Shown piece after piece: positions 59,576 through 61,474 of a stretch of 64,000 nucleotides of DNA; the stretch's first letter is position 1, and each line of letters opens with the position of its first letter. The stretch is taken from contig OZ024740.1 in NCBI GenBank assembly GCA_964016885.1, positions 86,118,001 to 86,182,000 of the forward strand, in the 5' to 3' direction. Made by a program: the position numbers and the translations under genes. Origin of the DNA: Eledone cirrhosa. Lineage: Eukaryota. The notes below the pieces were generated by a model. It did not search any database. It saw only the letters and a list, made by a program, of their open reading frames with translations, and was not told the DNA's origin.

Positions 59576-60028
59576 AATCCATCGGATTTATGAGGTTTTA
59601 CAAAGCGAAACTGATCAGTAAGGGCCACTAGAAGAGGTAAATATTTATATTATATTTTTTAATGTATTTTGAAAAATTGATTGAATTTTACTTGTTCTGC
59701 TTATCTTAATATTAAAGTTCTGGTGTATCAAATTAACACCATTGAACAACCTTGAATCATAGACAACCTATGTATTTCTAGGGGTACCTAGTATCCCTGG
59801 ACATATTAACTTCTACCTTTTTCTCCGTCCGTTGAGAACAAATCTGTTGCTTTACTTGGCTGCTATTTTTTTAGTAGTAATTGTAGACAGCAAGTCTTTG
59901 ATTTTCCCGCTTTTACTTCGGTCCAGTTTACATACGGGTCACTTTTACGACCTTTCAGACCTTTATTAGCTGGCAGGAGGTTGTATATTTTGTCGTTCCT
60001 CGGACGTTTAGCCCTAGGAAGGGAAAAT

Positions 60029-60110
60029 GCTTCTCTGATGAGCTTTGGTTTTCCATCATAAATCCATCGGATTTATGAGGTTTTACAAAGCGAAACTGAT
60101 CAGTAAGGGC
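60029..60110 (+). ncRNA. Type I hammerhead ribozyme
   Basis: GCTTCT-CTGATGA-GCTTTG..TCATAAATCC atc GGATTTATGA..CAAAGC-GAAA-CTGATCAG-TA-AGGGC. Confidence 0.85.
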
Positions 60111-60513
60111 CACTAGAAGAGGTAAATATTTATATTATATTTTTTAATGTATTTTGAAAAATTGATTGAATTTTACTTGTTCTGCTTATCTTAATATTAA
60201 AGTTCTGGTGTATCAAATTAACACCATTGAACAACCTTGAATCATAGACAACCTATGTATTTCTAGGGGTACCTAGTATCCCTGGACATATTAACTTCTA
60301 CCTTTTTCTCCGTCCGTTGAGAACAAATCTGTTGCTTTACTTGGCTGCTATTTTTTTAGTAGTAATTGTAGACAGCAAGTCTTTGATTTTCCCGCTTTTA
60401 CTTCGGTCCAGTTTACATACGGGTCACTTTTACGACCTTTCAGACCTTTATTAGCTGGCAGGAGGTTGTATATTTTGTCGTTCCTCGGACGTTTAGCCCT
60501 AGGAAGGGAAAAT

Positions 60514-60595
60514 GCTTCTCTGATGAGCTTTGGTTTTCCATCATAAATCCATCGGATTTATGAGGTTTTACAAAGCGAAACTGATCAGTAAGGGC
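60514..60595 (+). ncRNA. Type I hammerhead ribozyme (second tandem copy)
   Basis: Identical to 60029-60110. Confidence 0.85.
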
Positions 60596-61474
60596 CACTA
60601 GAAGAGGTAAATATTTATATTATATTTTTTAATGTATTTTGAAAAATTGATTGAATTTTACTTGTTCTGCTTATCTTAATATATATATATATATATATAT
60701 ATATATATATATATATATATATATATATATATATATATATATATATATATATGTATATATATATATATATATATATATATATATATATATATATATATAT
60801 ATATATATATATATATATATATATATATATATATATATATATATATATATATATGTATATATATATATATATATGATAAATATATACATATATCTATATG
60901 CTTTTGAGTGTGTGTAAATGTTTATGTCAGTGTGTGTGTCCTTGTTTGTGTCAGTGTGTGTGTGTATGTGTGTGTGTGTGTGCGTCTGTTCCTGTGCTTG
61001 TGTGTGTAAAGAGAAATTCTAATAGAAAATGTCCGTTTATAACTGCTTTATAATTCTTGATATCCTCGTATTTGTCTAGATTTCTTTGTGGTTCTAGTTA
61101 ACCACCCACTATCTTTCTCACTGTGTATCTATCTAATACTCTGTATGCATTCATATATATATCCTTTAATTCTTCTAATCATAGACTGCGGTCACGCCCA
61201 CACACACACAAACAGACACACACACACATACATACATACATAAATGTATGTATGTATATATATATATATATTTATATATATATATATATATACATATATA
61301 TATATATATATATATATATATATATAATATTTCAGACAGAAAGTTATTTGTCACAAATATACTTGAACATCTCAATGAAAAGAATCAGAAAAGCATTTAA
61401 ACGTAGTCTATCTAATGACAAAACATTCATTACGAGTGGTGGAATTCAAGCTAGATCAACTAATATTGGAAATG

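Follow-up and report, generated by a model that had tools for sequence, protein, structure and literature searches.

A probably young tandem array of a 485-nt hammerhead ribozyme element in Eledone cirrhosa, likely inserted by Penelope-like machinery

Organization of the locus

We analyzed a window of 64,000 nt from the forward strand of Eledone cirrhosa contig OZ024740.1 (assembly GCA_964016885.1, positions 86,118,001 to 86,182,000). It contains a tandem array carrying hammerhead ribozyme (HHR) motifs, within an insert bounded by microsatellites, and a Penelope-like element (PLE). All positions are those of the window, and the main features are:

14246–16610, minus strand: PLE with RT and C-terminal GIY-YIG, broken over ORFs 14246–15076 and 15261–16610
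58712–58878, no strand: left microsatellite, (ACAT)n(AT)n, bounding the whole 1.8-kb insert
58879–59568, minus strand (strand inferred): GC-rich left sequence of 690 bp, 56% GC, CpG-rich and low-copy, with a 149-nt internal duplication (93%)
59569–59575, no strand: junction filler of 7 nt that repeats the preceding 6 nt and links the left sequence to the truncated array
59576–60682, plus strand: tandem array of 2.28 identical non-coding units of 485 nt, 5'-truncated within HHR stem II
59576–59624, plus strand: 3' half of a truncated first HHR, with the end of stem II, GAAA, a palindromic stem III and a potential cut after 59620, without CUGAUGA
60031–60109, plus strand: type I HHR 1, with core 60035–60041, stem II 60042–60091, GAAA 60092–60095, palindrome 60095–60104 and predicted cut after 60105
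60106–60590, plus strand: predicted monomer between the cuts, 485 nt, 35.7% GC
60516–60594, plus strand: type I HHR 2, identical to HHR 1, with core from 60520 and predicted cut after 60590
60591–60682, plus strand: 3' extension, reaching 88–92 nt beyond the second cut, that holds a long AU-rich hairpin (60599–60669); its end is the likely RT start
60679–60899, no strand: (TA)n microsatellite, the likely target, sharing 4 nt of microhomology with the unit end

Tandem Repeats Finder (TRF) reported a period of 485, 2.3 copies and 100% identity for 59576–60682. In a base-by-base comparison all 622 of 622 repeated bases were identical and both ends were sharp, which bears out the 2.3 identical head-to-tail units of a first-pass annotation; the youth that it ascribed to the insertion agrees with the 100% identity between units. 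It had also seen no ORF, and the circularised 485-nt unit indeed holds no ATG ORF longer than 15 aa in sense or 34 aa in antisense. When 117 PLE-related proteins were compared with 58882–60678 by tblastn, none matched at E<0.05, and neither an ORF nor a coding remnant was found there; as a control, all 117 matched the PLE of the window. An autonomous PLE has pseudo-LTRs enclosing an ORF for telomerase-like RT and GIY-YIG; no such ORF is present in 58882–60678. No Pol III A/B box pair with proper spacing was evident by eye, and ARAGORN found 0 tRNA genes.

Hammerhead ribozyme motifs of the unit

The HHR core CUGAUGA occurs at 60035 and 60520, 485 nt apart, and is followed by GAAA and by GUA cut triplets at 60105 and 60590. 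Complete motifs thus stand at both of the cuts that had been predicted earlier, with the same 485-nt spacing. Stem I has 4 contiguous pairs, 2 of them G-U, and stem II spans 50 nt (6 bp, an internal loop and a 12-bp extension). The stem III sequence, CUGAUCAG, is a perfect 10-nt palindrome, predicted to be stable as an inter-unit duplex (−13.6 kcal/mol) and unstable as a hairpin (+1.5 kcal/mol). The array has only 2 complete HHRs because its first unit starts inside stem II, without CUGAUGA. Of the canonical HHR described for every unit, the canonical core, extended stem II and palindromic stem III hold; the motif is nevertheless complete in only two units, its stem I is short, and it has no Rfam match. 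No Rfam hammerhead model matched the unit either at the gathering score or at E 10, where chance matches alone appeared.

The motif was scored with a type I HHR descriptor that we wrote from the HHR consensus. Among 2000 shuffled units, the descriptor matched 2; in the window itself it has 13 sites, compared with 0–1 per shuffled window (n=20). A stricter form (stem I of at least 4 bp, stem II of at least 7 bp) misses the unit because the basal stem II is 6 bp. Compared with the canonical type I HHR, described with a 6-bp helix I, a 4-bp helix II and a loop-loop contact (PMC4209133), the unit differs in its 50-nt stem II, its 4-pair stem I and the lack of an evident canonical loop 1-loop 2 contact. 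Most contact nucleotides are likewise missing from mussel retrozyme HHRs (PMC7229834), and PLE HHRs have been described with a long helix II, a short helix I and a palindromic helix III with dimeric activity (PMC4209133). Judged by its sequence, the HHR of the unit is canonical in its core and Penelope-like in shape, with a short stem I, a 50-nt stem II and a 10-bp palindromic stem III.

This resemblance to PLE HHRs (PMC4209133), together with a genome rich in PLE HHR fragments, would also suit a different reading, by which the unit is a pseudo-LTR or terminal piece of an autonomous PLE with its ORF elsewhere and the locus is a truncated fragment. We consider that quite unlikely: past the 3' extension, the same HHR comes again within 485 nt, with no coding remnant.

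Predicted folding and cleavage

The monomer was predicted to fold more stably than expected in both forms (z = −5.25 linear, −5.8 circular), with 0 of 100 shuffles as stable in each case. Models of the linear monomer pair the 3' strand of stem III with the HHR core (P 0.76), and in models of the circle a stretch near 59908–59921 covers both stem III and the cut site by base pairing. The active HHR fold lies above the predicted ensemble by 9.5 kcal/mol locally and by 12.1 kcal/mol in the circle. In the array, a double hammerhead costs 15.2–15.9 kcal/mol compared to 21.6–25.5 kcal/mol for two single ones, a predicted advantage of 6–10 kcal/mol. These models predict a monomer ribozyme that blocks itself. 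With the active fold 9.5–15.9 kcal/mol above the ensemble, the prediction is therefore that cleavage is weak, depends on dimers and is perhaps assisted by protein.

Protein-assisted HHR cleavage has been demonstrated for the anole PLE (PMC11167929), and Xenopus retrozyme dimers were reported to be cleaved in only 1 of 9 predicted cases (Li et al. 2026, 10.64898/2026.07.22.740005). A blocked circular HHR, as predicted here, is reported in PMC7229834 for retrozymes of plants and of some mussels, but not for the majority of animal retrozymes.

An abundant and diverged family in public sequencing runs

We searched public sequencing runs with 58882–60060 as the query. Eleven runs were listed, 8 of them with some of the query, under five organism labels and none recorded as RNA; four of the 11 (X1, X4, X6 and X9) were compared at 85% likeness. 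The unit was present in all four. In X1, the summed depth was 2,884–48,877 in the 12 full unit bins and 11–61 in the 17 bins of the left flank. This roughly hundred-fold excess is not a copy number; the sum is inflated by variant contigs, and X1 may be the window's own source. Single X1 contigs reach depths of 1,603 (1 difference in 111) and 2,072. In X4, X6 and X9, all 13 unit bins were covered and none of the 17 left-flank bins. The unit is thus clearly an abundant, diverged high-copy family in which no ORF was seen, and the left flank is not high-copy.

Among the 382 X1 records listed, likeness was at least 99% in 118, 95–99% in 80, 90–95% in 135 and below 90% in 49, a spread that indicates a diverse family with a young branch near the window copy. 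X4, which carries a different organism label and has low depth, holds stretches of 137 nt with 0 differences and 267 nt with 3. All four runs contain the joint from 60060 to 59576, which demonstrates continuity of the HHR and nothing more. Support for the full loop comes instead from contigs 10, 11 and 16 of X4, which overlap around the unit, and from a long X6 contig. Contig 22 of X6 (record 22; 59933–60056) represents a diverged subfamily about 84% alike and runs unbranched for 554 nt at depth 46, the deepest among the X6 pieces listed; by its length, it would fit a single complete turn around a related unit of about 520 nt. X6, a run with no library kind on record, is dominated by one diverged variant, and this was not read as expression.

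These runs also bear on the view that the unit is a terminal PLE fragment. As that view would have it, there are loose ends at which other sequence follows (59870, 59933 and 60007), but those at 59933 and 60007 resemble diverged unit body, all unit bins are deep in X1, and X4 and X6 contigs run round the unit. Among the variant loose ends listed, inspection by eye showed the stem II hairpin kept with changes on both sides, and in one case a near-palindromic stem III of other sequence. Viral contigs gave 0 matches to the HHR pattern and 0 to a left-flank motif; metagenomes gave 2 matches to a 20-mer, both attributable to chance (no upstream core, only 21–25 nt alike).

A recurring 3' end in AT-rich DNA

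The array had been described as HHR-delimited, but it stops 88–92 nt past the second cut rather than at a cut, 9–13 nt beyond the AU-rich hairpin. Its 3' end runs into (TA)n at 60679–60899, as had been noted; the 5' end, by contrast, adjoins GC-rich sequence from outside the family and not (TA)n.

The same 3' end recurs in the family. Two X6 contigs pass from position 59712, which equals 60682, into (AT)n, and one X4 contig stops at 59712. In X9, 60 reads leave the unit at 59714 into an AT-rich flank unlike that of the window, possibly at one locus. A second unit end appears in X1 and X6 near 59812–59814, about 100 nt further and just after another hairpin. The variable start points, or random phase, anticipated for the family therefore give way to a fixed recurring 3' end (X6, X9 and X4) plus a second end (X1 and X6). 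X1 depth peaks in the 3 bins that separate the cut from the 3' end, a pattern that 5'-truncated copies would produce. As for a TSD of more than 4 bp, the edges of the insert are microsatellites and an unrelated 5' arm, and no TSD or empty site is visible.

The array shows the signature of a PLE-type insertion, with a fixed internal 3' end (here at +88–92 nt), an AT-rich target and 5' truncation. A PLE protein was shown to cut both strands of AT-rich DNA, with reverse transcription starting internally 85–92 nt past the HHR cut (PMC11167929); the start positions were 111–118 nt into the ORF, for an HHR cut at 26, and RNA left uncut served as the main template in vitro (PMC11167929). Given this signature and the use of uncut RNA, a circle is not required. 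Other HHR elements of the window end 38–150 nt past their cuts, so the match of about 90 nt to the anole PLE is not special. The array and PLEs share a fixed internal 3' end past the HHR, an AT-rich or microsatellite target, 5' truncation and possibly an inverted 5' arm (PMC4209133, PMC8557442, PMC11167929); the unit differs in having no RT/GIY-YIG ORF and in two ends that lie about 100 nt apart, compared with 30–40 in PLEs. These signatures give good support to PLE-driven insertion.

An identical array would also be expected from a linear uncleaved multimer, or from a 1.28-unit insertion duplicated later. In the latter case, a PLE-type partial tandem would have gained its extra unit by unequal crossover or slippage between the 137-nt terminal repeats, with no rolling reverse transcription. 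This predicts the same 100% identity and phase, and satellite-like local amplification after PLE-type insertion has been proposed (Li et al. 2026). We nevertheless regard it as unlikely, as it requires a further event in a copy still free of mutations; moreover, an insertion of more than one unit with the family's fixed 3' end would still be needed, so that only the last step changes.

The left flank and the 5' junction

No HHR, tRNA or Rfam match was found in the left sequence, 58879–59568. As a diverged inverted copy of the unit it was rejected, the best local scores of 23 and 24 being reached by 214 of 300 and 119 of 300 shuffles. Record 6 of X1 matches the left sequence up to 59568 only and then continues into other DNA, and another X1 contig enters 58882 from non-microsatellite sequence. 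Since these contigs extend beyond both 59568 and 58882, the left sequence is a piece cut from a longer low-copy sequence. In X1, it also forms a higher-order repeat (from 59289 via 28 other letters back to 58882) and carries many TTAG/CTAA motifs.

Read on its minus strand, the left sequence ends in CTTAA before a microsatellite, and so does the array when read on the plus strand; at the central junction there is the 7-nt slip filler and no TA run. PLE insertions have been described with inverted 5' arms, tails at one end and a microsatellite bias (PMC8557442). The inverted arms of PLEs are copies of the same element (PMC8557442), whereas in this insert the 5' arm and the element are unrelated. 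There is about an even chance that the left sequence is the opposite-strand arm of the same head-to-head insertion; alternatively, it is an older insertion that was hit at its edge.

The junction is also where an assembly artefact of a high-copy repeat would be sought, either in the array itself or in its joint with the left sequence. In favour of an artefact, identity between units is 100%, the junction 59575/59576 is not crossed by any of the contigs listed, record 6 of X1 departs at 59568 for other DNA, and the window also has a 2,192-nt fold-back of 99.2%. We judge an artefact very unlikely, as the ends look biological, with the recurring family 3' end on one side and the 7-nt slip filler at the 5' end, and holes between contigs prove nothing, since such a link may be lost when contigs are cleaned.

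Relationship to Penelope-like elements and retrozymes

The PLE of the window gave an RT fragment at E 2.6e-4, below the Pfam cut-off, and GIY-YIG at E 9.8e-7. It has 117 homologues, mostly with PLE-type domain sets. Ranked by identity, the top named match for each half is a gene model from Octopus (74% identity, over 22% and 51% of the query); matches of longer coverage reach at most 60%. These are transposon proteins, and by them the host is likely an octopod. A Cys-rich linker has been described as a feature of the Neptune clade (PMC8557442), and a degenerate Cys-rich linker in the window PLE suggests that it may belong there. The unit shows no clear homology to the terminus of this PLE (score 38, with 9 of 200 shuffles as high), and the partner PLE is therefore not identified. 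The unit is at most weakly related to the window's other HHR elements: 1 of 8 comparisons reached 1 of 200 mononucleotide shuffles, probably through AT-richness.

We compared the unit with animal non-LTR retrozymes (PMC7229834; Li et al. 2026). Shared features are head-to-tail non-coding units, a type I HHR, GC below 50%, the lack of an LTR or ORF, a self-paired monomer, multiple copies and PLEs alongside. A type I HHR is found in two consecutive units (60035 and 60520), where Li et al. 2026 call an array 'active' from at least two. The unit has 35.7% GC, no protein-coding capacity and a stable self-paired monomer, and the X1 depth excess and variants mark a multi-copy family, alongside autonomous PLEs of which the window holds one broken over two ORFs. 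Its 485 nt lies above the 150–450 bp given in PMC7229834 and within the 51–972 bp of Li et al. 2026. We conclude from the sequence that the 485-nt element is likely a non-autonomous HHR tandem element of the animal non-LTR retrozyme kind. The retrozyme kinship proposed earlier is thus sustained by an abundant, ORF-less HHR array inserted in (TA)n with a PLE in the same window.

Circles of animal non-LTR retrozymes have been shown in coral, mussel and axolotl, with PLEs named as likely mobilisers (PMC7229834), and animal retrozyme units have been related to pLTRs (Li et al. 2026, 10.64898/2026.07.22.740005). MRC1 of Chlamydomonas, a non-autonomous PLE (PMC8557442), is likewise non-coding, multicopy and head-to-tail, with insertions moved by PLEs. 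Elements of the MRC1 type belong to the Chlamys clade, mostly lack HHRs and share 3' sequence with an autonomous partner, whereas for the unit here no such partner was identified.

We found no cephalopod retrozyme in the published literature; supplements, Repbase or Dfam could hold the family. The words 'octopus', 'cephalopod' and 'squid' do not occur in the main text of PMC7229834, nor 'ribozyme' or 'retrozyme' in the consulted text of PMC13282606. The suggestion of a possibly undescribed family therefore stands insofar as no cephalopod family was found in print; the class itself is well described, and 485 bp is within its known size range.

Proposed origin of the array

In our preferred reading, the array is probably a young copy of an abundant, protein-less 485-nt HHR element, inserted into (TA)n by PLE RT and GIY-YIG acting in trans. 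Multimeric transcripts would be cut by double hammerheads paired via the 10-bp palindrome, and the monomer might then be ligated into a circle in which the ribozyme is blocked. A PLE enzyme would nick (TA)n and prime cDNA roughly 90 nt beyond the cut, at a fixed internal position immediately 3' of the AU-rich hairpin. RT would copy 2.28 units, from a circle or from an uncut multimer with about equal likelihood, and stop inside stem II. The cDNA end would be joined through the 7-nt filler to a second, unrelated piece, for which an opposite-strand arm of the same event and some other source seem evenly balanced.

A more specific and tentative proposal is that the whole 1.8-kb insert is one PLE event that primed both (TA)n strands from two RNAs, namely a retrozyme circle, from which 2.28 rounds were copied starting at a fixed internal position, and a GC-rich, low-copy transcript unrelated to it. 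If true, the genome itself would directly prove that retrozymes are moved in trans by PLE enzymes; head-to-head arms could then come from different templates, and among octopus retrozymes there would be circles whose ribozyme is silenced by internal antisense pairing. Retrozymes are already known, and the family alone adds a taxon, likely octopods. PLE mobilisation of animal retrozymes is a standing hypothesis, founded on their co-occurrence and related sequences. It becomes testable with a family that is young and abundant, has a fixed internal 3' end and two alternative ends, targets (TA)n and possibly carries a heterologous inverted arm.

Other hammerhead motifs and repeats in the window

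Short head-to-head HHR pairs lie between TA microsatellites at 10201/10291, 12476/12643, 29764/29839 and 62080/62184. All four face outward into microsatellites, and in every pair a long end is combined with a short one (40/114, 76/139, 136/38 and 45/134 nt); these outward pairs match the inverted arms and one-sided tails described for PLEs (PMC8557442). Single HHR motifs occur at 18022, 28614 and 57330. At 61335–61965, a diverged head-to-head pair (about 67% alike) carries degenerate HHR-like motifs with a long stem II at 61577 (minus) and 61814 (plus), and is perhaps an older architectural relative.

The PLE itself lies in 11768–18734 with minimal HHR cores at 13869 (minus) and 16629 (plus), flanked by the 2,192-nt inverted repeat of 99.2% (11768–13951 and 16547–18734). 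This repeat includes microsatellites and another HHR pair, and may represent a PLE fold-back with flanking DNA or a read chimera.

Two LINE-like RT remnants were also observed, one at 1527–4847, with a 1.4-kb direct repeat (94%) and C-terminal C2H2 fingers, and one at 6596–9208, with an RVT_1 ORF of 535 aa. ORF 2920–4449 has zinc-finger matches and resembles a LINE C-terminus by eye. A minisatellite of about 171 copies of 31 bp occupies 38090–43311. Minus-strand ORFs at 48657–54078 with matches to PIF1 helicase, UvrD_C_2, UCH and DUF6570 resemble a broken Helitron-type element.
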